Shown one piece after another: positions 28,184 through 58,035 of a DNA stretch of 64,000 nucleotides (positions within the stretch are counted from its first letter, which is position 1; every line of letters starts with the position of its first letter). The notes below the pieces were generated by a model that saw only the letters and a program-made list of their open reading frames with translations, was not told the DNA's origin and did no database searches. A program made the position numbers and the translations under genes. The stretch lies in sequence record PZ171032.1, one strand, 5' to 3'. Source of the DNA: a phage.

Positions 28184-28212
28184 ATTTTAACACTTTAGGG
28201 AACAAAATGCAA
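28184..28212 (-). promoter_or_regulatory. sigma70-like promoter with extended -10 (TGnTAAAAT)
   Basis: On the minus strand: -35 TTGCAT, 17-bp spacer, TGT-TAAAAT; sits right after the 28212..28233 terminator and before the fiber gene. Confidence 0.4.
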
Positions 28213-28233
28213 GAACGGAGTCCTTTCCGTTCT
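28212..28233 (-). terminator. rho-independent terminator-like hairpin
   Basis: agaacgga-gtcctt-tccgttct 8-bp stem followed on the minus strand by TGCATTTTGTT. Confidence 0.45.
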
Positions 28234-28242
28234 GACCTTTGT

Positions 28243-28557
28243 TTACCTTTTACTATGCTCTACGAGCATGTGCAAAATCTTTTGTACATCGGCTCTGATG
28301 CCGGAGACATCTGTCCTGACATCCTGCTTAAGGTCGTTAATATCGGCCTCTAGCTTGCTTAACCGGGTCTCTATAACGGAATCAAGTTTATCTTTTGTAA
28401 CCATACTGTTTTTCACTAAGATGAGGTCTTTCTCCAGCTCATCCAACCTCTTGGAAATGCCTTTCCATTTGGTGTGCCACTGGTTGAAAGCCCATACACA
28501 GATCGGGACAACGGTACCCATGCAGATACCGTACAATGCCGCCAAATCCAACTCCAC
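28243..28557 (-). CDS. membrane-anchored coiled-coil protein
   Basis: 104 aa; N-terminal hydrophobic segment 'LAALYGICMGTVVPICVWAF' followed by a charged helical region. Confidence 0.5.
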   Translation of the reverse strand: MELDLAALYGICMGTVVPICVWAFNQWHTKWKGISKRLDELEKDLILVKNSMVTKDKLDSVIETRLSKLEADINDLKQDVRTDVSGIRADVQKILHMLVEHSKR

Positions 28558-28568
28558 AACACCTCCTC

Positions 28569-29153
28569 TTAGAGGGTAGGTCGCTCCGGGAAGAAAATGT
28601 CAGGGGCTTTAGATGTATCTATTTCAAGAAGTTTTACCCTGTACATTTTCAAATCTCTGATGTTACGTTTCTGGTCATCAGTAAGATCATATTCAAGGTC
28701 AATCATGTCTTGATAGGCACCAATTCTAGCAGTAGCCCAAGCAAGTTCTGTCTCTATGACACCCTCTGCCTGTTGAACAAAGAATTCATTATCTGTGACA
28801 AATTCATCACCAACTAAACGCAAAGCGTCGTGGTGAAGCATAATGTTTTCTGGTACCTCTTCTTTTTTGGCGATAACCACACGAAGACCTGGAGCAGGCC
28901 ATAAGGCATCAGGTTCTTCTGTAGATGTCTTAAGAATTCCCTTCTCGTCAACAAGTAGGAAGATACAACCCGGATTTTCTTGTCGCAATGTTCGTGACTG
29001 CACATACCAATCGCCATCATCATTACGTAAAAAATACCCAGTGTATGCGGTGTAATCCTCAACCTCTTGAGGGGTCAGCTCCTTGGTTTCCTTGTTGGCG
29101 TGGTATTCGCCAGATCCCGGTTGGTAAAGTTTAAACTCTTTAAGTATTTTCAT
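28569..29153 (-). CDS. tail fiber assembly protein (Tfa chaperone family)
   Basis: C-terminal 'LTDDQKRNIRDLKMYRVKLLEIDTSKAPDIFFPERP' matches the Tfa signature as recalled (a conserved Y-R, a D-x-S and an A-P-D-I ... P tail); immediately downstream of a gpH-like fiber. Confidence 0.75.
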   Translation of the reverse strand: MKILKEFKLYQPGSGEYHANKETKELTPQEVEDYTAYTGYFLRNDDGDWYVQSRTLRQENPGCIFLLVDEKGILKTSTEEPDALWPAPGLRVVIAKKEEVPENIMLHHDALRLVGDEFVTDNEFFVQQAEGVIETELAWATARIGAYQDMIDLEYDLTDDQKRNIRDLKMYRVKLLEIDTSKAPDIFFPERPTL

Positions 29154-29167
29154 GCTAGTCCTCCGAT

Positions 29168-30208
29168 CTATGCATAATTAACAGTGATCCATTGACCATT
29201 TACAAGTTTTTGTAAAGGTCCTGCCCAGTAAGTTGAACCACGCATCTCTTTTTTGTCACCGAAATGCCAGCCTGTGACAACGTAGCCGTTGCGGATTGGA
29301 GATTCAGAAACGCCGTCCACAAGTCTTGCACCGATTCTGATGTCTTGCACACCCGTCTGCGGGATAGTGATCGTTACATCACCGTTACCGTTAGCCGTCA
29401 CTCCGTTCACAGAGCGAACCACATTTCTGTTACCTACAACACAGTGCTGGCTTCTTACAACCATACTGTCACAACTTGCACCACCATTAACATATACTGA
29501 CCCAGCCGTCAACTGACTAGCCACATTACAGTTGGTGAATGTTGCGGTATTGCTGATAGTAAGGTTATTGCACCTCATGTTATCGACAACTTCAACATTG
29601 CCTACCACTTTCAACAGCGCACGGTTAGCCGTGATCGCGTTAAGGTACATCAAAGTGAACTCTGGATTAATATCCGGCTGAGTTGGCTGGAATCTCCAAC
29701 GAAACGCATCTATTGTAGATGTGCCACCATCATCAAACGACCCAAAATTATCACTTAACCCAAAGTCGAGAGTTGTCTTATCTGGGCCAATAGTTGTCTC
29801 TATCCAAGCCTTATCTGTCTCGGCAGCTTTAAAGTTGATACGTTGCAAACCCAATGGGCCTGTCATTGTATCACCTGTAACTTTTACATACCTAGCGTCT
29901 GCCTCTTCCTTAGTAATAATCCCAAGGTTTCTACGGGCAACAGGAATGTTCAAAAGATCACTCAAGTTATTATCACGTACCAGATAACGGCCTTCTTGAG
30001 CGGGGATCTGCTCGTCAGCAATGTATTTTGCCCAAGTCCCGAGCATATTGAAAATATAGTTAAGCTCTTCGCATGAGGGCTTTTGACCAAGATCCCAACC
30101 TTTTCTCCACAAATCATCAATCGGGCGTAGCCTGTTCTGTCTGTGGGTGTTAGGCAGAACCTGATCCTCCTCTGCCCAAATCTCTAATGGAAAACTAGGT
30201 TTTGACAT
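29168..30208 (-). CDS. tail fiber protein with P2 gpH-like C-terminal tip (paralog 1)
   Basis: 346 aa; C-terminus '...GPLQKLVNGQWITVNYA'; N-terminal and central regions align with 27110..28156. Confidence 0.7.
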   Translation of the reverse strand: MSKPSFPLEIWAEEDQVLPNTHRQNRLRPIDDLWRKGWDLGQKPSCEELNYIFNMLGTWAKYIADEQIPAQEGRYLVRDNNLSDLLNIPVARRNLGIITKEEADARYVKVTGDTMTGPLGLQRINFKAAETDKAWIETTIGPDKTTLDFGLSDNFGSFDDGGTSTIDAFRWRFQPTQPDINPEFTLMYLNAITANRALLKVVGNVEVVDNMRCNNLTISNTATFTNCNVASQLTAGSVYVNGGASCDSMVVRSQHCVVGNRNVVRSVNGVTANGNGDVTITIPQTGVQDIRIGARLVDGVSESPIRNGYVVTGWHFGDKKEMRGSTYWAGPLQKLVNGQWITVNYA

Positions 30209-30220
30209 TTTATCTCCTGA

Positions 30221-32293
30221 TTATGAGAAGTCTGGCGGGACAACATCTTCTACATACCCTTTCAGAGCAACCTGCCCCATATGAAGCACGGTAGAATCTC
30301 TAGCGGTAACAGTGATGCTGTCAGACATTACTTGCGGGTATGCCCACACATACTGTTTTACCTCAGGGTATCTATACTCTATAGTTGCCATGTTTCCGCA
30401 AATACATCTCCATAAAAATTCTTGGTAATTCCTAGTTGGGTCGTAGCCATATACCGGAGCAAGCTCTTTACTAGGAACGAACCCTGCAAGGTATTGTATT
30501 TCAGACGGTTGCCAACCTAACTTAACGATAGGTATGTTTACAGACTCTTTTGCCTTTTCAATACCTCCCTGCATCACCCAATCGTAGCACTCAGTGCAGA
30601 AGAAATCAAGAGCACCTGCTTCCTTTTTATATTGGTCAGCAAGGTTCAGCTTTTGCGTAAGCTCGGTTTCCATAATGGTTGGGAAAAACAGCAAAGCTGT
30701 CATCTGAGCTGATGCAGCGTGTGCTTTTATTGCCTTTGAAATAGCCGCAATACGAGCGCCAAGCTTACCACGACAAAATGCTACATACTTGTCGTAAACA
30801 CCGCCAGTTTTAGGATCGTCAATAGTCCCAATATCTAATGCATACTCGCCTGTCTCATCATAAAACGCCTGTTTTGTAGGGTAATCATAAATACAAGGTC
30901 TACGAGTATCGGTATTGTACCACCACCACGGTTCACCAACCTGCATAATCACTGGCAGGTTGTTTCTCATAGCGGCTGATGCAAAATTCTTAAATACTGC
31001 AGTAAGGAAATTCATACCCTCTTCAATGGTTGGAGACAGGAGGTAGCTACAAGGTGTATACCCTGTTTTAGCGTAGTTATCGTTCCAGTCTCTTTGGGTC
31101 CATTCCAACGGGCAGGCGTCGCTGAAAAGCTCAAAACTTACAGATTGCATAACGTCGAAGTTATGTCGTTTGGCATTGTACATAAAATCATCATGCCATT
31201 TATAAGCTGCAGCGTTTAGCGCTCCTGTTCTGTTTATAGACCATTGGGTTCCTGACCATGTGTAGTCATAATAATGACTCATACCAACATAATGGTTTAT
31301 GGTTCCGGTATAGCCCAGACGCTTGATATTGTTCAACACCCTTAAAGGAGACACGTTCCACATATCGTCATATGCGGTGCAGATCCCAACATCGTGCTCT
31401 TTAACCTGAATATTGTTAAGTTGCATCATTTTCCAGCCTGTGTCTGGCTGGAGCAGATCTAGGCGCAACTCACACTCTACATTTTCCGTTCTCGGGTCTG
31501 TGCTATTACTTACCCAGTCTTTAGGCATGAGCGGTATTAAAATCCTTCTCACCTGCCGAGGATCAACACCCATCATGTTGTTGTTCTGGTCCATCCCGAC
31601 GCAGTCCTCAAAATCAATATGAATTTCTGCAACATTCTTATCCTCTGAGATGCTGACAGCATATTGAGCTAAAGGAACATAGATGATTGTGCCATCAACA
31701 AGGTCTACAGTCATAATCATCTTTTCAGGAGTGGAGAAGTTGCTGGCGTTGGTTATTGACATTCTGAACCAAAGCTTGGTGTTTCTCATCTCATAGTGAT
31801 CATCAAACCCAATACCGAAATGGTCATACTTGTCAACTGTTTCCCAAATGCACCCAGCCATACCCCCATATGTTCTTGACACTAAACGGTTAATACAACA
31901 GTTGTTATCTGCAACAATACAGGTACTTTCAGTCTGCTGAGTAGTTGTAACCCAATACCTTGGGTGAAACATTCTCTCCTCAACAGTATCCCAAGATATC
32001 CTGTCAAGATTCTCATCTGAAACTATTGTACATTTCGCCCTTTGTGTTCCAATCATCACCCCTTGAGATTTTGATGAAAACTCCATAAAGAAGCTTCTTG
32101 GCAACCTGTTGGGTAATTTGTCAACAATTTCCACAGGGATCTCAATACTGGTTGCCCCAATTGGGATAGTTACATCGCCCTCAACATGATTATAATCCCT
32201 ACCAGGAACGGCAGTATCCTGAACTGTTCGGTAATGAAACTGTGCAGCCATTGTAGAGTAATCACGGTAAGGTTTAAAAACAGCTGTTGCCAT
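30221..32293 (-). CDS. baseplate/tail fiber-associated protein with possible glycoside-hydrolase-like C-terminal domain
   Basis: 690 aa; aromatic-rich C-terminal half ('GEPWWWYNTD', 'FFCTECYDW') reminiscent of carbohydrate-active enzymes; position between baseplate and fiber genes. Confidence 0.45.
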   Translation of the reverse strand: MATAVFKPYRDYSTMAAQFHYRTVQDTAVPGRDYNHVEGDVTIPIGATSIEIPVEIVDKLPNRLPRSFFMEFSSKSQGVMIGTQRAKCTIVSDENLDRISWDTVEERMFHPRYWVTTTQQTESTCIVADNNCCINRLVSRTYGGMAGCIWETVDKYDHFGIGFDDHYEMRNTKLWFRMSITNASNFSTPEKMIMTVDLVDGTIIYVPLAQYAVSISEDKNVAEIHIDFEDCVGMDQNNNMMGVDPRQVRRILIPLMPKDWVSNSTDPRTENVECELRLDLLQPDTGWKMMQLNNIQVKEHDVGICTAYDDMWNVSPLRVLNNIKRLGYTGTINHYVGMSHYYDYTWSGTQWSINRTGALNAAAYKWHDDFMYNAKRHNFDVMQSVSFELFSDACPLEWTQRDWNDNYAKTGYTPCSYLLSPTIEEGMNFLTAVFKNFASAAMRNNLPVIMQVGEPWWWYNTDTRRPCIYDYPTKQAFYDETGEYALDIGTIDDPKTGGVYDKYVAFCRGKLGARIAAISKAIKAHAASAQMTALLFFPTIMETELTQKLNLADQYKKEAGALDFFCTECYDWVMQGGIEKAKESVNIPIVKLGWQPSEIQYLAGFVPSKELAPVYGYDPTRNYQEFLWRCICGNMATIEYRYPEVKQYVWAYPQVMSDSITVTARDSTVLHMGQVALKGYVEDVVPPDFS

Positions 32294-32979
32294 TAACCCT
32301 CCTGTCTAGTTGCGTTTACTGTAATACTTTCACAATAAATGGTTGTGGTGTCCCAATCAGGTCTTACGTCAGGAACATATAGCAAAGTAGCCAGCCCACC
32401 AACTCCGAATTGGTTTTCTTCCCACACTGATCCGAAGCCAAGAGCTGTGGAGTCCCCTTCAAAACCAAAAGCTTGCCCTTGCGATTCTGTAAGACGCAAA
32501 TGACAAGGCAATGGTAGCATATCTAAGATCTGGTCGATAGACTGCAGTATGTCAAAGCAGGTTTTTCTAATGTTTATGTCAAACCTGAAGTTGTCTCCTT
32601 TCCACGTATCGAAATTGTCTCTTCCGAACAATTGTCGCAAGGTAGAGATGACATCTTCGCGAGTCCCGCCCCTTGATGCTGCGGCCTGCTGAATAATTAG
32701 TGTGGCACGAAAATCAGCATCTGAAAGTCCATTTCTAAGAATACCAAGTTGATTACCAACTTCGTCAAGGTATCTTCCGCTGGCATTGTTAAGCAATCTT
32801 CCTTCAGCCAAACCTACCAGCATCTTATCAACATCCTCCAACCTTTTAAGGTACACGGTTAAGAATGTGACTAAATTAACCTTCTCAGCCAGAAAATCTC
32901 CAGGCAGGTAGTCAAGACCTCCCTGAACAAAATCTGGCAGAGTGTGGATGTGGTTAACATCCGACTTAATCTCTGCCAT
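32293..32979 (-). CDS. putative baseplate wedge/tail-fiber attachment protein
   Basis: 228 aa directly downstream of the baseplate-J-like gene with overlapping stop and start; assignment is by position. Confidence 0.35.
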   Translation of the reverse strand: MAEIKSDVNHIHTLPDFVQGGLDYLPGDFLAEKVNLVTFLTVYLKRLEDVDKMLVGLAEGRLLNNASGRYLDEVGNQLGILRNGLSDADFRATLIIQQAAASRGGTREDVISTLRQLFGRDNFDTWKGDNFRFDINIRKTCFDILQSIDQILDMLPLPCHLRLTESQGQAFGFEGDSTALGFGSVWEENQFGVGGLATLLYVPDVRPDWDTTTIYCESITVNATRQEG

Positions 32980-32990
32980 ATCTCGCCGCC

Positions 32991-34481
32991 TTAAATAGTT
33001 TGTTGGAAAGTTATATTACTTTCGTCGAGGTCAAACACCTCGGTCATGTTCGCAACAATATCGTTTGTAGTGTAAGCTTCATCAGAAGCTCCTACTGGTT
33101 TAACTTGAATTACCAGTCTATTAAATCTGCCTATTGACACAGCAGCAGATGCAGCACCGACCAATTGGATATTATACAACGTATCTGCAACATCCAGTCC
33201 GTTAACAACCTGCAAAAGAGCCTCTACAATGGCATCTTTTTCGGTTGTGGAAAGCGCAGCACCGGAGTAGGTAATTCTTACATCCAGTCGGTAGGTATTT
33301 GCCTTGGAATAATAAATTCTTTCAGTTTGACCGTCAGATGTAGTGACATCGTAGAAAATATTACCATAAGTCCTGTTCGTACAGGCGATAGTTTGGTAAA
33401 GCGCTTGGCAAATGTCCTCCGTTGCACCACCAAACACAACCACTTGGAACTTGTAAGGAGGTATACCTTTAGCATCAGTTTTATCGGTGTTGTTGGAGAA
33501 CACTCTCACTTTCTCAACACCTTTCACCTCGCTTACAGCGCTAAGGATTGCAGGACGAGTGGCCTTAGATGTTAACTGTTTTGTGCTGGAAGCTCTTAAG
33601 CGATACTCGGAGTCTTTCTCAACATCCCTGCCCTCATTGAATCTTTCTCGGTTGGTAAGTTTGATAAATCCACTGGGCGTAGGCGACATTGTTGTTACGG
33701 TTTCTGCCTCTCTTGACAGCTCACCAGCCTCGTTGGCGATAACATCCAGGGTGATAGTTCTTTCCCCTACAATCGGGGATACTCTGAAATCTACTCTACT
33801 ATTAAGTCCAACTTGATCAAGATTCGAATTGTACCCTATCCACAACGTCCCTGTCAACATATCGATCTGAATCAAATCGTCGTTCAACAGGGTTGTATTA
33901 TCGACAATGAATTGCTTAATCTCTCCGTAAAAGCTTGGCAAATCAGAAGAGTCCAGAGACTTATCTGTTAAAACCAGGCTTTTTGTTTTGATACTTCCAT
34001 CTGTCTGGTTGGTAATTTGGAAGTTGTATTTCCCAATCCTTAGGTCTGGAGCATTTATTCTGTGAGCAATAAGATTCCCTGCTACTTGCACATCGTTGCT
34101 AAGAACAAAGTTGCCACTGTCCAGCGTATAAGTTTTGGAATCATAAATCATATTGTACGGCACAGTTGTGTTGATTGTCAACTGGCAGGTACCTGATGAT
34201 TTAGAACGGCCTCTTCGGTAAATACCCTGTCTTCCAAGAAGCTCATCTAGGTAAATACCTTCTGCCCCATACAGCGTCTGTGATGCGTATACAGATGCTG
34301 CCATAAGAATAAGTTGATACTCTCTCTCGTTGAAGATAGTGGTCAGCTTATCTGCAACGGAGTTACTCTGTACGTTGAAGTTTTCGCCAAAAGCACGGAT
34401 CAGGCTTTGCTTAGTTTCAACGATTAGGTCATTTAGGGTTGGTATAACGAAACCAGCCTCTGTCAATCCATACTTAGCCAC
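32991..34481 (-). CDS. baseplate J-like protein
   Basis: 496 aa; N-terminal pattern 'YGLTEAGFVIPTLNDLI...L..AFGENF' typical of the baseplate J family; preceded by its own promoter. Confidence 0.5.
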   Translation of the reverse strand: MAKYGLTEAGFVIPTLNDLIVETKQSLIRAFGENFNVQSNSVADKLTTIFNEREYQLILMAASVYASQTLYGAEGIYLDELLGRQGIYRRGRSKSSGTCQLTINTTVPYNMIYDSKTYTLDSGNFVLSNDVQVAGNLIAHRINAPDLRIGKYNFQITNQTDGSIKTKSLVLTDKSLDSSDLPSFYGEIKQFIVDNTTLLNDDLIQIDMLTGTLWIGYNSNLDQVGLNSRVDFRVSPIVGERTITLDVIANEAGELSREAETVTTMSPTPSGFIKLTNRERFNEGRDVEKDSEYRLRASSTKQLTSKATRPAILSAVSEVKGVEKVRVFSNNTDKTDAKGIPPYKFQVVVFGGATEDICQALYQTIACTNRTYGNIFYDVTTSDGQTERIYYSKANTYRLDVRITYSGAALSTTEKDAIVEALLQVVNGLDVADTLYNIQLVGAASAAVSIGRFNRLVIQVKPVGASDEAYTTNDIVANMTEVFDLDESNITFQQTI

Positions 34482-34514
34482 GTCACTCCTCCGGTATGAA
34501 AATCTCTACAAGGT

Positions 34515-34543
34515 ATTTTACCAAATTTTGTAACAATAGTCAA
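34515..34543 (-). promoter_or_regulatory. sigma70-like promoter with extended -10
   Basis: On the minus strand: -35 TTGACT (reverse complement of 34538-34543), 17-bp spacer, TGG-TAAAAT (reverse complement of 34515-34523). Confidence 0.55.
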
Positions 34544-34561
34544 TCTGAGCATAAAAATAAA

Positions 34562-34577
34562 CCCCGCCGAAGCGGGG
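34562..34577 (-). terminator. rho-independent terminator
   Basis: ccccgc-cgaa-gcgggg hairpin followed on the minus strand by TTTATTTTTAT. Confidence 0.65.
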
Positions 34578-34586
34578 CTTTAAAGG

Positions 34587-37500
34587 TTAGTCGTGAGACT
34601 CGTTCCAAGGTCCCTGGAAGCTTGAGTTAGAACGGCTTACTACAACAGTAGGACAGGATATTGCGACCCCTGTTACAGAAGACGTTGACCATGGTGTGTA
34701 GATTTCAACAACAATATCTATGGTTTGTTCACCAAGACCTGTTATCCCTACCGCACACATGCCGTTGTTGTCGTTTCCGTACTTCTTACCTGCAAGGATT
34801 TGATGTCCGGCTATCCAAACGTTGAGCTGGGAGCTGGCAAGAGTACCATTCAGTTTAAAGAAGAATGTTACGTTCTTACCCTGACCTGAAACGTTATCTA
34901 CGTATCTCCACCTCCAACGGCAAACCCTTTGCTGGGAGTTATATACTGGAGCACAATCCCCATAAGTCCTGTGTGCAACAATTGCACCTTCGAACTGGTT
35001 AGCGCGGATAACAGAAGCTTCTACACGACCACGGAAGGTACCTCCGGTTGCGTCTATGGTGCCTCTAAAGCTACCATTATTGGCATAAACATCCCCACGG
35101 AAGGTACCACTAGTGGCGTTAACTGCCCCTGTGAAGTTACCAGAACTGGCGTTGATGTTGCCTTTCACCCACACATCCATAAATTGGGCGTGCCCGTTCT
35201 TGTTAATATACCAACCGTATTTATGGTACCCGTTGCCATCGTAGTTGTTTGACGAAATTTCTTGTGCGATCTTGGCAGAGGAGATCGTGCCATTCTCTAT
35301 AAAAGCGTCTTTCAAGAATGCTTGGTTGTTCTTGATTGCGAAAGCAAGGGTTGCTGTTCCATTGCCTGGGTTGTATACCGCAAAATTGTTTGCACTAACC
35401 ATGAAGTAGGATTGAACTTGGCCCCCAGACCCTTCCATCCCCAACTGGATACCTGCAACATATTTATTCCCTGCGGAGTCTACCTGTATTTTTGTGCCCC
35501 ACTGAGCATTTACTTTACCCTCTAAGTCGGTTACAGCCTTAGATGTTGTAGCTACTGCAGCCCTGATCTCGGACACATCCCCAACACCATCAATGATCTC
35601 CTGCTTAGCAACGGCAAGTTCTTGACGAATAGCTGACGCTGTGCCGTTAATCAGATCAACAGTGGCGTTATTAGTTTCAGAAATATTCGCAGACAAGTCT
35701 TTCTTCGTCTGAGTCAGCTTATTGTCCAACCCAGTAATATTATTGGTGTTGGTTGTAATCTGCCCTTTAGCAGTGGTTAACTGCTCAGTCAAAGCTGCCG
35801 TTTTCTGATTCAACAGGTCAGTTGTGGCCTTGTTGGTGGTAGAAATCAACGTATTAAGATCAGACTTGGCGGTGTTTATCTTACCATCAAGCGTGGTGTA
35901 GTTTTTGGACACTGTGGCGTTGGTCTGGCTAATCTTCTGGTCAAGAGTCTCAGAAGTTCTGTTCAGCAAGTCCACAGTGGCCTGGTTAGTGCTCAGAATG
36001 CTCGCATCCAACTCAGATCTTTGAGTATTCAACTTGCCCTCTAGGCTCTTATCACCAGCCAGATAGCCTTTTTCAACATCTCCGATCTGCTCAGTCAACT
36101 CGCCCTGTGCAGCAACCAGTTTTTCATCCAACGCCTCTGTTTTCTTATTAAGAAGATCAGTGGTGGATTTGTTGGTTGACTCAATCAAGGATGATAGTTT
36201 AGCACTCTCATTCTGCAGGTTGTTGGTCAACTCACCTTTCGTTGCTGTCAGCTTGCTGTCTAAAGCCTCGGTTTTCCGATTAAGGAGATCTGTAGTCGTT
36301 TTATTGGTTGATACAATCAGAGAGTTCAGCTCAGAGCTTTCCTGTGCTAAAGCATCTTCCAATTCACCCCTTGTTGAAACAATCTTCTCGTCCAAAGCTT
36401 CAGTTTTCTGATTTAACAGATCGGTTGTAGCTTTGTTAGTGGTCTGGATTAGAGAAGTCAACTTGCCACTTTCTTTAGAAAGATCATTTGCAAACTTATT
36501 CTGAGTGGCTACCAGTTTCTGGTCTAGAGTGGTAAGCGTTCCATTAACGTCCTGGAAGTTGTCGTGGGTTTCTTGGATGAATATTCCAACCCTATCCCCC
36601 AACTGAGCATACAGCTTGTCTACTCTAGAGAACTCACCTTCCATGTGGTCAAAAGCCTCGTCAACTCTACCATCCATGTACCTGTTAAGTTCTGTGACAC
36701 GATTTTCAACCTCTTCAATAGAGGAATCCAAAGTGCTCATCAACTCTTTATAAGTTTCTGTCTTTTTGAATTCAGCATCTATCTGAGGCATCAAATCCTC
36801 GATAGAGGTGTAGCAGCGTGCAGCGCATTCTACAAACTGAGAGCTACCAAAAGCGTTTGTGGTTCTAATATACCAATAATAAACCTTATCGTTCTGCAGG
36901 CCTTCAGATGTCCAAGTTGAACCAACACCCATACGGGTGGCGTTTGAAGTAACGGTTGCATCACTGGTGTCGGGCAACCTTGTCATACCAGATGTCCAAA
37001 AGTCATACTGGGTGCTTACACTTGCTAAATCCCTGCTGTGTGGAATCAAGGTGATAGCAAAGTATCCCTGCTTAACCTCTACAGAAACAGGAGCTTCAGG
37101 TGCCTGAATGTTAAACTCGCAGTACGCTTCTGGAGATACACCACCTTTATAAGATGTTGCAACCACGGTTGCTGTGTATGATCCTTTGGTCAAGCCTTCT
37201 ACTCGGACAAACTGCTCAACTGTCTGTGCTGTCCAAACAATCTCTCCGTTCTTTCTTACCTGTACAATATTTTGAGCGTAAGTTCCAACGTTGTCCCAAG
37301 CCAAAACACCGTGAGTTACTTCTCCGGCTTGGAGAACGGAATATCTGAAGTTTTGCGGTTGAGCTACACCAGATGGAGATATCGGAATATCTACATTGCC
37401 AGAATCCGGAAGTTGCCCTGTGGCATCATTCCACTCTTTAGCATCTTGACGAAGTTTTACCTTGACACCACCCTTTTTGGTAAACTCCCATTCAAGAACC

Positions 37501-38732
37501 CTCATTTCTTGGCCCACTATACCAATACTTGGAAGGTTCATTGTAACGTAACGACCAGGTTTAAATTTAAAACCTCGCATATTGCAGGTGACTTCAATAA
37601 TCCTGCCAGCTCTAGCGCGTCTTAAGAAGATTGCAGAAACACGCTGAGCTTGATAAGGACTGGTAACAAAGCGATAGTCTATATCGATTATCTTTCTTTC
37701 TCCATCCTTCTCTATCCACTCTGGGACAAACACTGATGGAAAATCTGTTTCAGAATACCCTTTGGTCGGACTAGTGAATCTGCCAGTTATTGTGTTGGAT
37801 CTTTTGTCAAATGAGGCTTCCGGATAGATCTTGACCTCACCACAGACACAATCCTCACTCAGCGTCATTGTTGCCGGGCCATAGTATGCACCAACCAGCA
37901 AACCATACTTACCAGCTACATAGCTGAGATCTGCGCCACAAGCTTTCAGCATTTCTGCCATAATGCTTGCCGGAGCCTCGTCCATGTCAAACTCGCCATT
38001 AATGGTGTATCGGCGCTCACTGGTTCCGTCTGCGTTTTTTACCGCCTCGTCGCATATGTTAGCAGCCTCCTTGAAGGACTCCCAGTTGATGGTTTCGTCA
38101 GGACATTTAAGGTACGTTCTTAAATAGTCTAGAATCACCAAGGACGCGTTATTGGTATACACCTCTTTACTGATGCGAGGATCATAGCATTTTTTACCAA
38201 CCTTGACGAGTGTAACGTTTGGCAACCCAAAAGGAAACTTGTTAGGGTCGAACTTGAAGCTGGCACGTAGCCAACTGATCCCTCTACCTATCATGTCTGG
38301 TGACCACGATGGGCAGTGTGTCCCCATGAAAGGATCAGCCGTTTTTCTGTCGTTATGTAACTCCCACGATACCAAATCTCCATACGAGGAAATAGGATTA
38401 CCATCGACAAGTATATCTTCTATACCTTCCAGAGGGTGATTGGCAAGAACAATAGCACAATGGAGGGTTTTGTCTCTATCCTGCTCCAAAAACGCAAGCA
38501 ATCCAGATGTGCGTGTCTTTCCATACACTACAGAGCAAGGTGCAGCAGAAGATCTGAGAAGCTTTTGTCTATCTTGCTGACTTCTGTAAGATTTGTTGCC
38601 CTCAAAAATCTTATCCAGAGTTCTGGTGGTAACAGTGTTCAGGCTGTCAGCCAGAGCTGCCTTGGATGCGTTCCAGTCATAACTTGAAGATCTTGCAGAA
38701 GCAACGATGTTATCAATCATTGCAATTGGCAT
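34587..38732 (-). CDS. large tail fiber protein (1381 aa) with central coiled-coil repeat shaft
   Basis: Central ~300 aa of ~44-aa tandem repeats ('LIxSTNKxTTDLLNxKTEALDxKL...GEL'); C-terminal Gly/Asn/Thr-rich region; large structural ORF in the fiber cluster. Confidence 0.7.
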   Translation of the reverse strand: MPIAMIDNIVASARSSSYDWNASKAALADSLNTVTTRTLDKIFEGNKSYRSQQDRQKLLRSSAAPCSVVYGKTRTSGLLAFLEQDRDKTLHCAIVLANHPLEGIEDILVDGNPISSYGDLVSWELHNDRKTADPFMGTHCPSWSPDMIGRGISWLRASFKFDPNKFPFGLPNVTLVKVGKKCYDPRISKEVYTNNASLVILDYLRTYLKCPDETINWESFKEAANICDEAVKNADGTSERRYTINGEFDMDEAPASIMAEMLKACGADLSYVAGKYGLLVGAYYGPATMTLSEDCVCGEVKIYPEASFDKRSNTITGRFTSPTKGYSETDFPSVFVPEWIEKDGERKIIDIDYRFVTSPYQAQRVSAIFLRRARAGRIIEVTCNMRGFKFKPGRYVTMNLPSIGIVGQEMRVLEWEFTKKGGVKVKLRQDAKEWNDATGQLPDSGNVDIPISPSGVAQPQNFRYSVLQAGEVTHGVLAWDNVGTYAQNIVQVRKNGEIVWTAQTVEQFVRVEGLTKGSYTATVVATSYKGGVSPEAYCEFNIQAPEAPVSVEVKQGYFAITLIPHSRDLASVSTQYDFWTSGMTRLPDTSDATVTSNATRMGVGSTWTSEGLQNDKVYYWYIRTTNAFGSSQFVECAARCYTSIEDLMPQIDAEFKKTETYKELMSTLDSSIEEVENRVTELNRYMDGRVDEAFDHMEGEFSRVDKLYAQLGDRVGIFIQETHDNFQDVNGTLTTLDQKLVATQNKFANDLSKESGKLTSLIQTTNKATTDLLNQKTEALDEKIVSTRGELEDALAQESSELNSLIVSTNKTTTDLLNRKTEALDSKLTATKGELTNNLQNESAKLSSLIESTNKSTTDLLNKKTEALDEKLVAAQGELTEQIGDVEKGYLAGDKSLEGKLNTQRSELDASILSTNQATVDLLNRTSETLDQKISQTNATVSKNYTTLDGKINTAKSDLNTLISTTNKATTDLLNQKTAALTEQLTTAKGQITTNTNNITGLDNKLTQTKKDLSANISETNNATVDLINGTASAIRQELAVAKQEIIDGVGDVSEIRAAVATTSKAVTDLEGKVNAQWGTKIQVDSAGNKYVAGIQLGMEGSGGQVQSYFMVSANNFAVYNPGNGTATLAFAIKNNQAFLKDAFIENGTISSAKIAQEISSNNYDGNGYHKYGWYINKNGHAQFMDVWVKGNINASSGNFTGAVNATSGTFRGDVYANNGSFRGTIDATGGTFRGRVEASVIRANQFEGAIVAHRTYGDCAPVYNSQQRVCRWRWRYVDNVSGQGKNVTFFFKLNGTLASSQLNVWIAGHQILAGKKYGNDNNGMCAVGITGLGEQTIDIVVEIYTPWSTSSVTGVAISCPTVVVSRSNSSFQGPWNESHD
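35590..36490. repeat. imperfect tandem repeats (~132-nt period) encoding the coiled-coil shaft
   Basis: About six degenerate copies of the motif gttttctgatt-aacagatc-gttgt-gc-ttgttgg visible in the nucleotide sequence; boundaries approximate. Confidence 0.6.
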
Positions 38733-39169
38733 TAATACCTCCAGACATCAACAACGATAGAATCTTTCATATCGAACATAAAGACCCCTTTATCACCTTT
38801 CGCCCAAATCTGGTTGTTCCAGAACACACCAGCGGTGAGCCCGTTCAGACCCTCGAAGATAACAATATCGCCACGCTGAACCTGTTTAGGAGTATCTAGT
38901 CGAGTCATAAAGAGATCAAAAATAGTAGGCAGGTGTGTGGTTTTGAAACGGAGCATGCACCATCTTTTGCTTTCCAACTCTGTTTTATACGTTCCTTCGA
39001 AGTTAGAAAGAAAATCTGTTCCGTATTGGGCATCAACACACTTAGCTGCAAAGGTGCAGCAATCGTGGAATCCCCATTCAAAAGGTATGGTGGCCTCTTC
39101 GTCAAACACTTTCCACAATCTTTCTTGCCAATCCACTAAACGAGGGTGTGTGCTCATTAAACCTCCCAA
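38732..39169 (-). CDS. hypothetical tail-associated protein
   Basis: 145 aa; 'WGFHDCCTFAAK' looks superficially like a Cys-peptidase motif but no matching catalytic His was found; stop overlaps the fiber start. Confidence 0.45.
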   Translation of the reverse strand: MGGLMSTHPRLVDWQERLWKVFDEEATIPFEWGFHDCCTFAAKCVDAQYGTDFLSNFEGTYKTELESKRWCMLRFKTTHLPTIFDLFMTRLDTPKQVQRGDIVIFEGLNGLTAGVFWNNQIWAKGDKGVFMFDMKDSIVVDVWRY

Positions 39170-39723
39170 ATGATCGGGCGGCTCGCCACCTGATCCACAT
39201 ATTTAAAAAATCTGTCATTATCGTTTCTTGAGCTGTGGCTTTCCTCCGTGTACCGATAAGGAAAACCTCTTAACCAGCTGTTGAAGATGGAAGAGATGGA
39301 TATGGACAAAGCACTATTCTCACCTGTCTGAATAGCCATATCTGTTATAAGTCCGTCAAACAAGCCATTAGTTGTAACAGGTAGACCATTCTCCATAGCG
39401 GTAATGTACAACGTGGCACGACAACCAGAATACTCCGTCTTCAGCAGATCACCCACATACTTAGGATCAAACCCGTTTAATGTTGCTACCACAGATCCGA
39501 AGTTGGTGGCATCTTTCTCAGACACAGCAGTTAATGTTGCTGATCCCCCTATCCCTATAAAATGTTGCCCCTCAATTACTACAACACCAGTGCCTGAGCA
39601 CACTCTGACAGTTCCTGTCGGTAGCTCCAGCTTTGCAGCAATTAAGATCTCAACACCATCAAGCTCCAGCTTTTCAAGAAATAAATTATCTAATGGCGCT
39701 CTGATCATCTTAGAAATCCTCAA
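39157..39723 (-). CDS. hypothetical tail-associated protein
   Basis: 188-aa ORF co-transcribed with the fiber genes. Confidence 0.5.
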   Translation of the reverse strand: MRISKMIRAPLDNLFLEKLELDGVEILIAAKLELPTGTVRVCSGTGVVVIEGQHFIGIGGSATLTAVSEKDATNFGSVVATLNGFDPKYVGDLLKTEYSGCRATLYITAMENGLPVTTNGLFDGLITDMAIQTGENSALSISISSIFNSWLRGFPYRYTEESHSSRNDNDRFFKYVDQVASRPIIWEV

Positions 39724-40300
39724 AGAAGTTGATAACTATATTATCACCTTTTTGCATAGCATCGACTTTTTGCTTAATTTTATAAATATCTCTGATATGA
39801 AACCTACCCTTCGGGGATTGAGTTATTATCTTCATAGTGTCCCCTGCGGCAATAGGTTTTCTAAGTCTTGGAGATATGCTTATAACAGCAGACCCAACAC
39901 CATCGCTACGCACTGGAGCTGTTACCACTTTCAATTCATCATTGACAGATATTTTATCCCCAGCTCTGGCTATGTCTCTGTTTGGCTCCCACCCAACCGT
40001 CTTCAAAAAATCGTCGTTACCAGTAGGCCCAAGGGCGATTGGCTCATTAGCTGTTACCGAGTGACCGTAAGTTTTAATAAGAAAGATGTTCCCATCTTTA
40101 TACACCTGATCAACAAAGCTCTTAAGCTCTAGCAACTGTGACTCGCTGATATTGGAAACCGTCAAAGTGCCTTTCCAGTTGGGTGTGGCATAGGTTACTT
40201 TTTGCGTTTTACCTGTAAACGGACTTTTAAACGTAACAATATCTGCCAGCAGCTCCAATCTAATATCTGGAAGGTATCTAGGCCTTTCCCATAAAAACAT
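39710..40300 (-). CDS. hypothetical tail-associated protein
   Basis: 196-aa ORF, first gene after the 40373 terminator and promoter. Confidence 0.5.
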   Translation of the reverse strand: MFLWERPRYLPDIRLELLADIVTFKSPFTGKTQKVTYATPNWKGTLTVSNISESQLLELKSFVDQVYKDGNIFLIKTYGHSVTANEPIALGPTGNDDFLKTVGWEPNRDIARAGDKISVNDELKVVTAPVRSDGVGSAVISISPRLRKPIAAGDTMKIITQSPKGRFHIRDIYKIKQKVDAMQKGDNIVINFFEDF

Positions 40301-40331
40301 TGTGCCTCCAGGTTAAACAATCATGATAATT

Positions 40332-40360
40332 ATTTTACCAGATTTTGAGTTAATACGCAA
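40332..40360 (-). promoter_or_regulatory. sigma70-like promoter with extended -10
   Basis: On the minus strand: -35 TTGCGT, 17-bp spacer, TGG-TAAAAT (reverse complement of 40332-40340). Confidence 0.4.
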
Positions 40361-40372
40361 TACAAACAAAAA

Positions 40373-40392
40373 GCCCCCGCCGAAGCGAGGGC
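40373..40392 (-). terminator. rho-independent terminator
   Basis: gcccccgc-cgaa-gcgagggc hairpin (one mismatch) followed on the minus strand by TTTTTGTTTG. Confidence 0.5.
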
Positions 40393-40399
40393 AAAACAG

Positions 40400-44212: not shown

Positions 44213-44226
44213 TCTTTCTCCTGAAA

Positions 44227-44243
44227 GGGGGCAAACAGCCCCC
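44227..44243 (-). terminator. intercistronic hairpin (attenuator/terminator-like)
   Basis: gggggc-aaaca-gccccc hairpin immediately after the upstream stop codon; followed on the minus strand by TTTCAGGAGAAAGAATG (Shine-Dalgarno and start of next gene). Confidence 0.4.
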
Positions 44244-51212: not shown

Positions 51213-51245
51213 AACCTCTCCAGGACACTCCGATACCATCTAAAT

Positions 51246-51274
51246 ATTGTATCATAAAATAGCCGTTTTTACAA
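51246..51274 (-). promoter_or_regulatory. sigma70-like promoter
   Basis: On the minus strand: -35 TTGTAA, 17-bp spacer, -10 TACAAT, between the 51290 terminator and the gene start. Confidence 0.35.
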
Positions 51275-51289
51275 CACTGATAGAATAAA

Positions 51290-51305
51290 GGGGGCCAGAG
51301 CCCCC
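51290..51305 (-). terminator. rho-independent terminator after the tape measure gene
   Basis: gggggc-caga-gccccc hairpin followed on the minus strand by TTTATTCTAT. Confidence 0.6.
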
Positions 51306-51316
51306 TGCACAGTTTA

Positions 51317-53653: not shown

Positions 53654-53707
53654 GGTTTCCTCATAATAAAAAGGGCCAGATCCCAGAAAAGGAATCCGGC
53701 CCTTAGA

Positions 53708-53956: not shown

Positions 53957-53967
53957 AACAACCTTGC

Positions 53968-54441
53968 TTATTCCTGCTCTTCCGGAGTCTGATCCAGGTT
54001 GTTCACCTGCTGAATCATACCCATCTGCTGTAACATCTCCAGAAGGCTTCCTAAACCGTCTTGTGTGAAAAAACAGCCGTAGTTAACCTCCAGAACCTTA
54101 CCTGCCAGCTTAATCATCTCCAGCAGATGCCCTGCAAACACAACATCAGGGTTAAGCTTATCCACACCATCTACGGTAATATCTTCGAACAAGATTTTAA
54201 ATAACTCTTCAATAGAGCTATCATCGAGTTCTTGGAACAGGTAAGCCAGAGCAGTAGGAAGGACCTCTGCCATATTCTGACCACCAGAGATAATAGATCC
54301 ACCGATAGCACCTAGCGGGACAGCCACAATCTTACCGATTTTAGGCATGTTTTTCATTGCTTTCATCGGTCCCCAGTGGGTGATCACGAAGTTGTGCCCT
54401 GCTAAATCAATCTCTGTTGTAGGTCTAAAGTTTATAGCCAT
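53968..54441 (-). CDS. tail assembly chaperone (G-like part)
   Basis: 157 aa, between the tube and tape measure genes; contains an in-frame U UUU UUC slippery heptamer. Confidence 0.65.
   Translation of the reverse strand: MAINFRPTTEIDLAGHNFVITHWGPMKAMKNMPKIGKIVAVPLGAIGGSIISGGQNMAEVLPTALAYLFQELDDSSIEELFKILFEDITVDGVDKLNPDVVFAGHLLEMIKLAGKVLEVNYGCFFTQDGLGSLLEMLQQMGMIQQVNNLDQTPEEQE
54067..54073 (-). other. candidate programmed -1 ribosomal frameshift site
   Basis: Minus-strand heptamer T TTT TTC, phased X XXY YYZ with the 53968..54441 reading frame; the -1 frame is open from here through the 53708..53956 ORF. Confidence 0.5.
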
Positions 54442-54484
54442 TTTATAGCATCCTTATTAGTCATGTTGTGCACCATATTTGTGT

Positions 54485-54513
54485 ATTTTACCATGATTAT
54501 GGTGCATTGTCAA
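54485..54513 (-). promoter_or_regulatory. sigma70-like promoter with extended -10 and overlapping inverted repeat
   Basis: On the minus strand: -35 TTGACA (reverse complement of 54508-54513), 17-bp spacer, TGG-TAAAAT; a 9-bp inverted repeat TGCACCATA / TATGGTGCA (54469-54477 and 54498-54506) straddles the -10 element. Confidence 0.55.
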
Positions 54514-54565
54514 TTTAACCTTTCAAGCAATTCAAGAACGTGTGTCAAAACCATAAAAGCAAAAA

Positions 54566-54585
54566 GCCCCACCCGAAGGTGAGGC
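54566..54585 (-). terminator. rho-independent terminator after the tube gene
   Basis: Minus-strand GCCTCACC-TTCG-GGTGGGGC hairpin (one G-U pair) followed by TTTTTGCTTTTAT. Confidence 0.65.
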
Positions 54586-54603
54586 TTATGCTAAAGTGTG
54601 CCC

Positions 54604-55077: not shown

Positions 55078-55087
55078 CTAGGCTTCC

Positions 55088-56464: not shown

Positions 56465-56503
56465 TTGTTTCCTCTTAATATCTGTGCACGGATATCAAAC
56501 ACG

Positions 56504-56520
56504 CAGTGTAATCATTACAC
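56504..56520. promoter_or_regulatory. perfect 17-bp palindrome upstream of the sheath gene
   Basis: AGTGTAAT-C-ATTACACT lies between a TATAAT hexamer (reverse complement of 56526-56531) and the sheath Shine-Dalgarno. Confidence 0.4.
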
Positions 56521-56536
56521 TACACAATTATAACGA

Positions 56537-57088
56537 TTACTGACCGCTGTCTGTAACCGCTTGACCAGCATCGGGTGAAGGGAAATGTGTGGTTACTTCA
56601 GCCTTGATTCCCTGGAGATCTTCAAAAGCCCCAATGTCTGTCTCAACAAACCTTACGTTAAATGTCAGCATTACTGTGGCTCTATTTTCATACGTCTGCT
56701 TATTCAACGGCACCCTTTGAGGTGAGATTGTTGAATTGTTGGAGTAGGCAAAGCACGACCCCAGAGGGAAATACTTGTCATAAAACATTGGAAGATTTAT
56801 TGCTTGCAATACTCTACTCAGTGCAGCATATGCCCTGCCACGATAAGCTGTTAACAGATAAGTAACAGTGTAACTGTGGGTGACGTAAGCATTACCCTCC
56901 GCATCTTGAAACTCATTGTCTTCCCAAGTGGTGGGGTTGATCGCCAAAGTTTGTAAAAGTACAAACTCACCTTCCGGCTTCGGTATAGTAGAACTTTCTG
57001 CCAGAACCACAGTTCTTCCTGTAGCAACCTTGACGAGTTTAGCAATAGTGGTTTCAAGATCAGAAAAAACTTTTTCGAAAGCTTCCAT
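56537..57088 (-). CDS. virion neck/tail completion protein (by position)
   Basis: 183-aa ORF in the head-tail joining block. Confidence 0.5.
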   Translation of the reverse strand: MEAFEKVFSDLETTIAKLVKVATGRTVVLAESSTIPKPEGEFVLLQTLAINPTTWEDNEFQDAEGNAYVTHSYTVTYLLTAYRGRAYAALSRVLQAINLPMFYDKYFPLGSCFAYSNNSTISPQRVPLNKQTYENRATVMLTFNVRFVETDIGAFEDLQGIKAEVTTHFPSPDAGQAVTDSGQ

Positions 57089-57513
57089 TAGTTTTCTCCT
57101 TCAGGCTCTTCTACCACAAAAAATCTATATCTCCCCCCGCCAGACGTGACATATGCATCACACTTTAAAACGGTAAACCATTTCAAGTCACCACGGATGT
57201 CAGGCAGTTGAATTTGATCAGCCATTGCATACGTTCCTTCATCTGGACTATACAACTTGGTTGATGAGTAAACTGTAAAAGCCTCATACTGTCTGTCACC
57301 TTCAGGGTTTATTTGAGAGGAGTAATCTTTAGCTGCCCTTCCTGTCAACGGCTGCACAACACACTCTAAGACATCAAACTCTTCATACTCAAGTTCTAAC
57401 CCCTCGTTGACAAAAGGCCCACCAGTTGTTTTGTTATACACTCTGTGGCGACCTTTGAATGTTTTACGAGGTATTAGCCTGTTCTTTCCTATCAGCCTAT
57501 AACCTGCTGCCAC
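57088..57513 (-). CDS. virion neck/head-tail joining protein (by position)
   Basis: 141-aa ORF, translationally coupled. Confidence 0.5.
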   Translation of the reverse strand: MAAGYRLIGKNRLIPRKTFKGRHRVYNKTTGGPFVNEGLELEYEEFDVLECVVQPLTGRAAKDYSSQINPEGDRQYEAFTVYSSTKLYSPDEGTYAMADQIQLPDIRGDLKWFTVLKCDAYVTSGGGRYRFFVVEEPEGEN

Positions 57514-57522
57514 TCAACCCCC

Positions 57523-57987
57523 TTATTTTTGCTGTCCGATTTTAAAGGTTGCAGATTCAAGCAGCACATCGTAATGCCGCATAGCTTCGTTGAAGCCCTT
57601 CTCTTGTGCCCACTGCTCACTAACCGTAGGATTACTAAACTGCCCAGCCTCAATAACAAACTGGATAGCTTTGGCCCCTGTATCCCCCATCTGCCTGAGA
57701 ATGGCCTCTGCACTTGACCCTCTAGCCATAGCTCTCAACAATTTTTCTGTTAAGGTCTGCAGTTGAGTGCTGTGAAATGCAAAGGCTGTCTCCATAAAAT
57801 TGCGAACAGGCAGCCCGTTCCAACCGAAGTTGTGAATAGCTGCCAATGTCGCCATATTTAAGCCCGAAGGGTGAGGTTCGTCATAAAAGCCGTAGGTTAT
57901 TGTTTTGCTCTCAAGTTTCACAAGTTCTTTGTAAAAGCGATCTAAACGCTTTAGGTTGAACCTTGTTTGACATTTAACCTTTAGCAT
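57523..57987 (-). CDS. virion neck/head completion protein (by position)
   Basis: 154-aa ORF downstream of an extended -10 promoter. Confidence 0.5.
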   Translation of the reverse strand: MLKVKCQTRFNLKRLDRFYKELVKLESKTITYGFYDEPHPSGLNMATLAAIHNFGWNGLPVRNFMETAFAFHSTQLQTLTEKLLRAMARGSSAEAILRQMGDTGAKAIQFVIEAGQFSNPTVSEQWAQEKGFNEAMRHYDVLLESATFKIGQQK

Positions 57988-58006
57988 TATTATTCCTCAC
58001 TAATGT

Positions 58007-58035
58007 ATTTTACCACAAAGATGAATCAAAAGCAA
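58007..58035 (-). promoter_or_regulatory. sigma70-like promoter with extended -10
   Basis: On the minus strand: -35 TTGCTT, 17-bp spacer, TGG-TAAAAT (reverse complement of 58007-58015). Confidence 0.4.

Follow-up and report, generated by a model that had tools for sequence, protein, structure and literature searches.

Promoter-like sites and terminators of the late module

The DNA analysed here, a window of 64,000 nt (sequence record PZ171032.1), belongs to the genome of a Vequintavirus, an rV5-like E. coli myovirus with approximately 97% identity to sequenced relatives. The late region (19392-64000) contains the structural genes, and intergenic sequence makes up only 2.6% of its bases. Its intergenic gaps contain the following promoter-like sites, given as -35 hexamer, spacer length and extended -10 element, with the corresponding promoters of coliphage rV5:

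62533..62561, minus strand: TTGCAA-17-TGaTAAAATa, between the stop of the portal gene (62581) and the ATG of an XkdF-type protease gene (62513)
58007..58035, minus strand: TTGCTT-17-TGgTAAAATa, before the Neck1/tail-completion gene (57523-57987); rV5 P056
54485..54513, minus strand: TTGACA-17-TGgTAAAATa, before the tail assembly chaperone gene (53968-54441); rV5 P051
51246..51274, minus strand: variant TTGTAA-17-TGaTACAAT, before a Dit-like gene (start 51212), directly after the terminator 51280..51306
40332..40360, minus strand: TTGCGT-17-TGgTAAAATa, before the distal tail protein gene (39710-40300); rV5 P040
34515..34543, minus strand: TTGACT-17-TGgTAAAATa, before a baseplate J-like gene (32991-34481); rV5 P036
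28184..28212, minus strand: TTGCAT-17-TGtTAAAATa, before a tail fibre gene (27110-28156); rV5 P030

Five of these sites (28184, 34515, 40332, 54485 and 58007) had been listed in an earlier sequence-only reading of the window, and its coordinates and strand proved exact. The window-wide search added the site at 62533-62561, whose downstream gene matches Pfam Peptidase_S78_2. All five listed sites face a structural gene, as had been proposed, and the partial -35 element described at a 17-bp spacer was recovered as a TTG at exactly 17 nt from the -10 hexamer in each of them and in 6/6 window sites overall. In three of the five, the -35 hexamer matches the consensus at just 3/6 bases; the site at 54485-54513 reaches 11/12 consensus bases plus the TG. 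The hexamer is TAAAAT at 6/7 late-module sites, the seventh being the TACAAT variant, and a TG at -15/-14 is present in all six as well as in the variant. TAAAAT agrees with TATAAT at 5/6 positions and keeps T-12, A-11 and T-7.

The motif and the five sites have been known since 2013 from rV5, where P030, P036, P040, P051 and P056 are listed as "putative late promoters" with the consensus TggTAaAAtA (Kropinski et al. 2013, Virol J 10:76, PMC3606486, Table S4C). The rV5 genome is about 95-97% identical to the present one, with the same sites in the same placement before late genes, and its published 37-nt sequences differ from those in the window by 0-3 substitutions, all outside the core. rV5 P048 falls in the same gap as the variant 51246-51274, the published motif there being centred on TGtTGTAAAAAC. 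The site at 62533-62561 is absent from the sequence-only list as well as from rV5 Table S4, and neither conservation across lineages nor the fixed TTG at 17 nt is described in the rV5 paper. Its authors likened the motif to the T4 late consensus TATAAATA and left the recognising factor undecided (PMC3606486). No start-site or RNA-seq studies of Vequintavirinae were found in the literature searched.

The terminators and terminator-like structures of the module, several of which are shared with rV5 (t041, t049, t050, t052 and t060 neighbouring the sites), are as follows:

59589..59623, minus strand: intrinsic terminator 3' of the major capsid gene, without a promoter behind it; rV5 t060
54553..54587, minus strand: intrinsic terminator 3' of the tail tube gene, hairpin plus U-tract, -22.4 kcal/mol, z = -5.8; rV5 t052
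53663..53704, minus strand: intrinsic terminator immediately 5' of the tape measure gene, without a promoter behind it; rV5 t050
51280..51306, minus strand: intrinsic terminator 3' of the tape measure gene; rV5 t049
44223..44243, minus strand: hairpin plus short T-run between the 865-aa and 1270-aa fibre genes, without a promoter behind it
40360..40392, minus strand: intrinsic terminator 3' of the 1270-aa fibre gene; rV5 t041
34551..34580, minus strand: intrinsic terminator 3' of the 1381-aa fibre gene
28202..28233, minus strand: marginal terminator, hairpin -12.8 kcal/mol with poor U-tract, overlapping the -35 of the site 28184-28212
25041..25067, minus strand: intrinsic terminator 5' of the 1878-aa fibre gene, without a promoter behind it; rV5 t028

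The proposal that each listed site sits just after a terminator is thus correct for 34515, 40332 and 54485, each preceded by a strong hairpin with U-tract, and marginal for 28184; it fails for 58007-58035, upstream of which no terminator was found.

Frequency and conservation of the motif

The plain 9-mer TGNTAAAAT is only modestly enriched window-wide, with nine matches, 9/9 on the minus strand, against 3.7 expected (3/100 shuffles reach nine). The composite TTG-N17-TGNTAAAAT was observed six times against 0.11 expected, a count reached by 0/100 shuffles. All six composite matches are located on the minus strand, in intergenic DNA and 19-43 nt upstream of a structural gene start, and the start codons downstream carry Shine-Dalgarno sequences. 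A similar frequency of the motif within coding DNA, named in the sequence-only reading as a refuting condition, was not observed: intergenic sequence, with its small share of the late region, holds 6/7 of the minus-strand late-region matches (binomial p = 2e-9), and under a first-order Markov model of intergenic sequence 0.065 matches are expected, with 0/5000 simulations reaching the observed six. A generic sigma-70 consensus scan gave 34 against 32.9 for one half of this region and 43 against 29.0 +/- 4.9 for the other, and was thus barely enriched.

Four further Vequintavirinae lineages carry the motif at orthologous gaps as well, and TAAAAT was found at most of the gaps examined there. In the aligned gaps, the blocks TTGCAA or GTTGnTTTTG and TGnTAAAATA are invariant while the spacers have diverged; for the site 62533-62561, TTGCAA and TGnTAAAATAA are invariant in all four lineages. 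The relatives sharing motif positions have genomes of 45-51% GC. Across five Vequintavirinae structural modules, a TG precedes 30/33 intergenic but 10/47 coding TAAAAT hexamers, corresponding to densities of 4.0 and 0.058 per kb. In 29 intergenic sites from five lineages with a 17-nt spacer, which are not independent samples where they occupy orthologous positions, -35 positions 1, 2 and 3 are T in 27/29, T in 27/29 and G in 19/29, and an A follows the hexamer in 20/29. The columns beside the TTG carry almost no information and the remainder of the -35 hexamer is unconserved. TTT replaces TTG in 10/29 sites, the T's being part of a terminator T-tract. Outside this set, an Aeromonas relative carries TTGAAA-N14-TGnTAAsAT, and in the sister subfamily Stephanstirmvirinae some corresponding late-module gaps contain a canonical TTGACA -35 with a TAnnnT hexamer at 16-18 nt. 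The conservation of the class at orthologous positions across Vequintavirinae lineages is the first of two modest additions made here.

In a close relative, the early regions hold about 30 promoters of the TTGACA type whose -10 hexamers vary; TGnTAAAAT is nearly missing from these regions and from the DNA-metabolism cluster. Early promoters of the TTGACA class are also listed for rV5 (PMC3606486, Table S4A), and the early motif of Certrevirus is AAAA-N3-TGTTGAC-N19-TATAAT (PMC7344957). The early promoters of Vequintavirinae are likewise of host type and belong to the same phages, but differ from the present sites by a near-perfect TTGACA, A-rich upstream sequence, varied -10 hexamers, mostly without TGn, and their location in the early and DNA-metabolism regions. 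The suggestion that the shared motif marks a common regulatory class is supported in this sense: the sites make up a class of their own, restricted to the late module and conserved at orthologous positions across Vequintavirinae lineages.

Candidate modes of recognition

Extended -10 promoters are a textbook class, and the sites are probably sigma-70-type extended -10 (TGn/-10) promoters of the Vequintavirus late (structural) gene cluster. Such promoters are read by sigma-70 region 3 through the TGn and need no -35 contact (Hinton 2010, PMC2988021). The present sites resemble this class in the TG at -15/-14, the retained T-12, A-11 and T-7, the weak -35 at 17 nt, and the correct gene orientation and distance. 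They differ in a hexamer that is nearly always TAAAAT followed by A, more uniform than in host promoters, and in their confinement to a phage late module. Initiation at the sites, sigma-70 as the factor and the means of late timing are what we infer from this picture. If unmodified host polymerase reads the sites, the late timing of the structural genes would be left unaccounted for. Sigma-70 would need neither the A that is invariant at hexamer position 3 (TAAAAT instead of TATAAT) nor the A that often follows the hexamer, and an additional phage factor could be involved.

With regard to timing, it is a tentative and rather doubtful proposal that TGnTAAAATa constitutes a late-specific class across Vequintavirinae, timed either by an AsiA-like switch or by a phage factor specific for the TAAAATA core. 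TGn/-10 promoters are immune to AsiA (PMC2988021), which suggests one possible route for an early-to-late switch. In the switch version, a phage protein would disable the -35-dependent TTGACA early promoters and spare TGn/-10 promoters without being an AsiA homologue, and an Srd-like protein encoded at 12306-13349 may possibly be involved. A search with T4 AsiA returned 1173 records; the 40 listed were genomes of 160-250 kb or short fragments of T4-type phages, and no homologue in a genome of Vequintavirus size was among these matches (40 of 1173). In a local tblastn search of 213 kb of Vequintavirus DNA the lowest E-value was 0.28, and no AsiA homologue was found. T4 middle promoters (MotA box plus AsiA) are similar in depending on a sigma-70 -10, often on TGn too, and in having a non-canonical element where TTGACA would stand, but the present sites lack a MotA box and have TTG at the canonical 17 nt. 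A MotA box (w w w TGCTTtA, centred at -30, 11-13 bp from the -10) is not conserved in the 29 aligned sites, where inspection found TGCTT-like strings at some sites only, 10 or 15 nt away.

T4 late promoters require neither a -35 nor a TGn and work with gp55, gp33 and gp45. They share with the present sites an AT-rich -10-region motif before structural genes, and AAATA is common to them and the rV5-type core, but they lack the TTG and TG conserved here. A T4-type late promoter was ruled against by the conserved TTG at 17 nt and the TG at -15/-14; moreover, TATAAATA occurs just once in the window (plus strand, 39781), and the sites match it at 5/8 bases. A broader version of this idea, which we consider unlikely, assumes phage-specific late promoters whose extended core TGgTAAAATa, and not the sigma-70 consensus, is read by host core polymerase together with a phage-encoded factor that resembles or modifies sigma, comparable in function to T4 gp55/gp33 or to sigma appropriation. 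The TTG at a fixed 17 nt and the near-obligatory TG, as signatures of sigma-70 region 4 and region 3, speak against it, even though the core is more uniform than sigma-70 needs (TAAAAT in 6/7 sites, trailing A in 20/29) and the class does not extend beyond the late module to any degree. A scan of the window's plus-strand cluster found no sigma-like family, none is annotated in the portions of relatives' genomes consulted, and the AsiA and MotA-box searches were likewise negative. The likeness to TATAAATA seen by the rV5 authors and the Srd-like protein, labelled 'decoy of host sigma70', would fit a phage factor, but homologues of gp33, gp45 and gp55 are reported to be absent in rV5 (PMC3606486). 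The conserved TG and TTG at 17 nt, together with the near absence of the class from early regions, favour the sigma-70 extended -10 reading over a T4-like late one, and these sigma-70 hallmarks, the second modest addition, argue against the T4-late-promoter analogy of the rV5 paper.

It is very improbable that the conserved block is not a promoter at all but an operator bound by a regulatory protein of the phage, or a 5'-leader RNA signal for, say, processing or stability. Conservation alone is silent on which molecule reads a sequence, and the motif always lies 19-43 nt upstream of a start codon. The second conserved element at a fixed 17 nt upstream of the motif, separated from it by an unconserved spacer, is typical of polymerase contacts and not of an RNA signal; dyad symmetry or a repeat typical of operators is missing, some counterpart gaps in Stephanstirmvirinae hold canonical -35 and TAnnnT hexamers, and with an upstream transcript start an RNA element would usually directly follow a terminator. 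Chance matches in AT-rich intergenic DNA have practically no prospect of explaining the sites: although AT-rich motifs of this length are frequent in general and the excess of the plain 9-mer is modest (9 against 3.7), a chance origin is refuted by the composite counts (6 against 0.11), the composition-matched intergenic simulation (6 against 0.065) and the intergenic-versus-coding comparison of TG, and all matches lie on the coding strand; the motif is also kept at orthologous positions in genomes of 45-51% GC.

Proposed re-initiation in late transcription

Under the sigma-70 extended -10 reading, host RNA polymerase holoenzyme would contact the TG at -15/-14 through sigma region 3 and TAAAAT through region 2, with region 4 contacting the TTG of the weak -35 where present. 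Transcription would be predicted to start about 7 nt past the hexamer, at approximately 62526, 58000, 54478, 51239, 40325, 34508 and 28177 (each +/-2), giving short leaders of about 12-36 nt that would carry the ribosome binding site of each block's first gene, namely those for the prohead protease, Neck1, tail chaperone, Dit-like protein, distal tail protein, baseplate J and tail fibre. Interspersed with the promoters are intrinsic terminators that follow highly expressed genes, namely those for the capsid, tube, tape measure and long fibres.

Several promoters adjoin or overlap a terminator T-tract, as does the -35 of the site 40332-40360, so the most likely role of the promoters is re-initiation after partial termination, which would set the relative dosage of gene blocks. 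The sequence-only reading had proposed a structural module split into several units in place of one long transcript. This picture is too tidy: four terminators have no promoter behind them, so that the tape measure gene and similar genes can be reached by read-through alone, and the units are not neatly separated. A division into independent operons is thus the disfavoured reading.

As a discovery the sites carry little weight, as they have been in print for rV5 since 2013 and extended -10 promoters are well known. Collections for phage therapy and biocontrol make wide use of vequintaviruses. Their engineering, for example as reporter phages or for payload expression, would benefit from a validated map of the late promoters and leaky terminators, which would also frame the question of late-gene timing in a phage that has no RNA polymerase of its own and no known sigma factor.

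Recurrence and placement of the motif

The structural genes of the window occupy a single minus-strand cluster, and the ORF map agrees with the annotation of a curated relative. Over a 14-kb stretch around the sites, many genomes of Vequintavirus, the genus of rV5-like E. coli myoviruses, are 94-97% identical to the window. Window positions 27000-41000 are also matched by 18 GenBank "Campylobacter phage" records (MG0656xx series, mostly with C. jejuni as host), with about 96-97% identity across the 14 kb for the records listed; their host labels look doubtful.

Gene clusters of the window
19392-63993 (-): structural (late) cluster, from the portal gene (62581-63993) at the right end to the long tail fibres (19392-25028)
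12306-19140 (+): second cluster
1-12229 (-): third, left-hand non-structural cluster

The second cluster includes three tandem 87-aa ORFs (14859-15648, (+)), the first two of which share one PHROG of unknown function while the third belongs to another. It also encodes a DUF2201 metallopeptidase/VWA-like protein (13362-14843, (+)), a few kb from a MoxR-type ATPase (8547-9731, (-); named from the annotation of a relative) on the opposite strand. Proteins of these two types are usually partners.

The recurring extended -10 motif, TGNTAAAAT, has nine matches in the window, every one on the minus strand. Direct reading confirmed the sequences and coordinates of the five sites named in the sequence-only reading. 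The composite pattern TTG-N17-TGNTAAAAT was observed six times against 0.11 expected, these being the same five intervals and 62533-62561. A variant seventh site, TTGTAA-17-TGaTACAAT at 51246-51274, follows the terminator that ends the tape measure gene.

Promoter-like sites and the first gene after each
62533-62561 (-): XkdF-type prohead protease
58007-58035 (-): Neck1/tail-completion protein
54485-54513 (-): tail assembly chaperone
51246-51274 (-): Dit-like protein (variant site)
40332-40360 (-): distal tail protein
34515-34543 (-): baseplate J-like protein
28184-28212 (-): tail fibre

Similar frequency inside coding regions had been named as grounds for abandoning the motif. According to the gene map, intergenic DNA makes up 1175 of the 44609 bases of the late region (2.6%), and six of the seven minus-strand matches there are intergenic (binomial p = 2e-9), so the motif is less frequent in coding sequence. 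With matched composition, 0.065 matches would be expected, and none of 5000 simulations reached six. The matches at 1856 and 63659 lie within ORFs and were left out of the count. TAGACA-17-TGtTAAAAT at 11084-11112 (-) was also set aside: it falls in the final 30 nt of ORF 11055-11327, just ahead of gene 10685-11041 in the left-hand cluster, and may represent an internal promoter of this type that is not part of the late module. A generic sigma-70 consensus scan gave 34 hits versus 32.9 by shuffle in one half of the region and 43 versus 29.0 +/- 4.9 by shuffle in the other, level with chance or modestly higher, and picked out only 34515, 54485, 62533 and the 51246 variant among the sites; taken alone, it speaks neither for nor against the motif.

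At each site the hexamer stands 19-43 nt upstream of a start codon that has a Shine-Dalgarno sequence. The gene that follows the portal gene (62094-62669, (-)) matches Pfam Peptidase_S78_2, the XkdF-type prohead protease family (E = 9e-18). Its longer 191-aa version, named "DNA methyltransferase" by the best PHROG and in a Pharokka-annotated relative, shares 89 nt with the portal gene and would engulf the site at 62533-62561; across lineages, the start codon kept is the ATG at 62513.

The motif and the five sites are already known from phage rV5, for which 33 sigma-70-like promoters (11 having an extended -10) and a MEME motif TggTAaAAtA with eight copies upstream of late genes were reported (Kropinski et al. 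2013, PMC3606486). The five sites correspond to P030, P036, P040, P051 and P056 of rV5 Table S4C with 0-3 substitutions, all outside the core, and P036 and P051 appear in the rV5 sigma-70 list as well (PMC3606486). The counterpart of rV5 P055 (window ~57100-57130, TGgTAGAAG) was not counted, as it lies inside a coding region, at its 3' end, and the hexamer lacks the final T. A literature search found no transcript mapping in Vequintavirinae.

Comparison across lineages

The structural modules of Seunavirus, Mydovirus, Certrevirus (51% GC) and Serratia phage Kashira (51% GC) were compared, together with those of two Stephanstirmvirinae and one Aeromonas Plateaulakevirus. TGnTAAAAT recurs at orthologous gaps in these four other Vequintavirinae lineages, namely ahead of the protease, Neck1 and baseplate J genes and behind the tape measure gene. 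In aligned gaps the blocks TTGCAA or GTTGnTTTTG, and TGnTAAAATA, are invariant, the spacers between them have diverged, and the terminator hairpins are unlike in sequence. At the 17-nt spacer, the -35 triplet of 29 sites begins with T in 27, continues with T in 27 and has G in 19; the other 10 have TTT, belonging to the terminator T-tract, in place of TTG. The columns flanking the triplet are uninformative, and 20 of the 29 sites have A directly after the hexamer. Across five Vequintavirinae modules, with no preselection on TG, this dinucleotide precedes TAAAAT in 30 of 33 intergenic versus 10 of 47 coding occurrences, with densities of 4.0 per kb in intergenic versus 0.058 per kb in coding DNA.

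Close relatives have about 30 TTGACA-type promoters, with A-rich upstream sequence and varied -10 hexamers, in their early and DNA-metabolism regions, in agreement with a Certrevirus early promoter (PMC7344957), and TGnTAAAAT is nearly missing from the intergenic DNA there. The suggestion that the shared motif marks a common class therefore holds, as the sites are confined to the late module and recur at orthologous gaps.

In some corresponding gaps of Stephanstirmvirinae (ahead of portal and protease-like genes, behind the tape measure gene), a canonical TTGACA -35 is followed 16-18 nt downstream by TAnnnT hexamers. The Aeromonas phage has TTGAAA-N14-TGnTAAsAT; across the late-module gaps 11273-11351, 12345-12497, 16332-16505, 22527-22689 and 24919-25087 of this distant relative (L006, Aeromonas phage phiA009), the pattern is TTGAAA/TTGACT-N14-TGnTA(A/T)nAT. 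Predicted extended -10 late promoters are therefore not restricted to Vequintavirinae, although the hexamer differs in character.

Candidate readers of the sites

The promoter anatomy was borne out: TG, TAAAAT (which retains the key positions) and TTG at a 17-nt spacer would offer contacts to sigma-70 regions 3, 2 and 4, respectively. Two of the three elements (-35, TGn, -10) suffice for a promoter (Hinton 2010, PMC2988021). On these sequence features the sites are probably sigma-70 extended -10 promoters.

The rV5 authors set their motif against the T4 late consensus and reported gp33, gp45 and gp55 homologues to be absent (PMC3606486). T4 late promoters use neither a -35 nor TGn, whereas the window sites have both; the presence of TG and phased TTG thus makes host sigma-70 holoenzyme a likelier reader than a late system of the T4 type. 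The T4 late consensus TATAAATA itself occurs once in the window, on the wrong strand, and was rejected.

Given that the TAAAATa core is uniform and the TGnTAAAAT class confined to the late module, a phage factor may be involved, or a switch that leaves TGn/-10 promoters unaffected. Such a factor is an unlikely reader, however: no sigma-like protein was found in the sequences examined, only an Srd-like protein of 347 aa at 12306-13349. This protein was the sole sigma-like or RNA-polymerase-binding candidate in PHROG and Pfam scans of 12306-19140 (+), and the parts read of the annotations of two relatives name no other sigma-like protein. PHROG matches label it "decoy of host sigma70" and "Srd anti-sigma factor"; the best of them is labelled HNH endonuclease, and Pfam gives no match. 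Its gene adjoins a divergent control region (12230-12305).

Putative promoter in the divergent control region
12270-12298 (-): TTGACT-17-TATAGT, equal to rV5 P010

A tblastn search with T4 AsiA matched T4-type phages only, among the matches listed, and found no homologue in 213 kb of Vequintavirus DNA. An AsiA-like switch is thus without homology support, and a non-homologous analogue is conceivable. TGCTT-like strings at some sites (58007; Neck1 orthologues) are spaced inconsistently, at 10 or 15 nt to the -10. Across the sites inspected no MotA-box-like element was found at the required distance, and the MotA-box reading was rejected. Chance and non-promoter readings, taken jointly, are very improbable. 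The enrichment of the composite pattern and its intergenic placement show the motif to be real and non-random.

Terminators and transcripts of the late module

Each site had been placed just after a terminator. This is correct for 34515, 40332 and 54485, which, like 51246, have strong hairpin and U-tract terminators upstream; 28184 is preceded by a hairpin with a poor U-tract, and no terminator was found upstream of 58007 or 62533. The terminators adjoining the sites are likewise in the rV5 tables (PMC3606486). A 12-pair AT-rich hairpin (56494-56526, (-)) lies in the 72-nt gap ahead of the tail sheath gene, with a perfect TATAAT, lacking TG or a -35, upstream of it.

Further terminators
59589-59623 (-): after the capsid gene, no promoter-like sequence behind
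53663-53704 (-): directly ahead of the tape measure gene, no promoter-like sequence behind
44223-44243 (-): inside the late module, no promoter-like sequence behind
25041-25067 (-): inside the late module, no promoter-like sequence behind
19347-19373 (T-runs on both strands): hairpin GGGGCCAAACGGCCCC where the (+) cluster and the late cluster converge; equal to the bidirectional rV5 terminator t026/t027

Since four late-module terminators have no promoter-like sequence behind them, polymerase must read through them to reach several essential genes, an arrangement that implies attenuation. The suggested split of the module into several units is therefore imprecise. Transcripts that overlap, being partly terminated and then re-initiated, describe the late module better than separate operons do.
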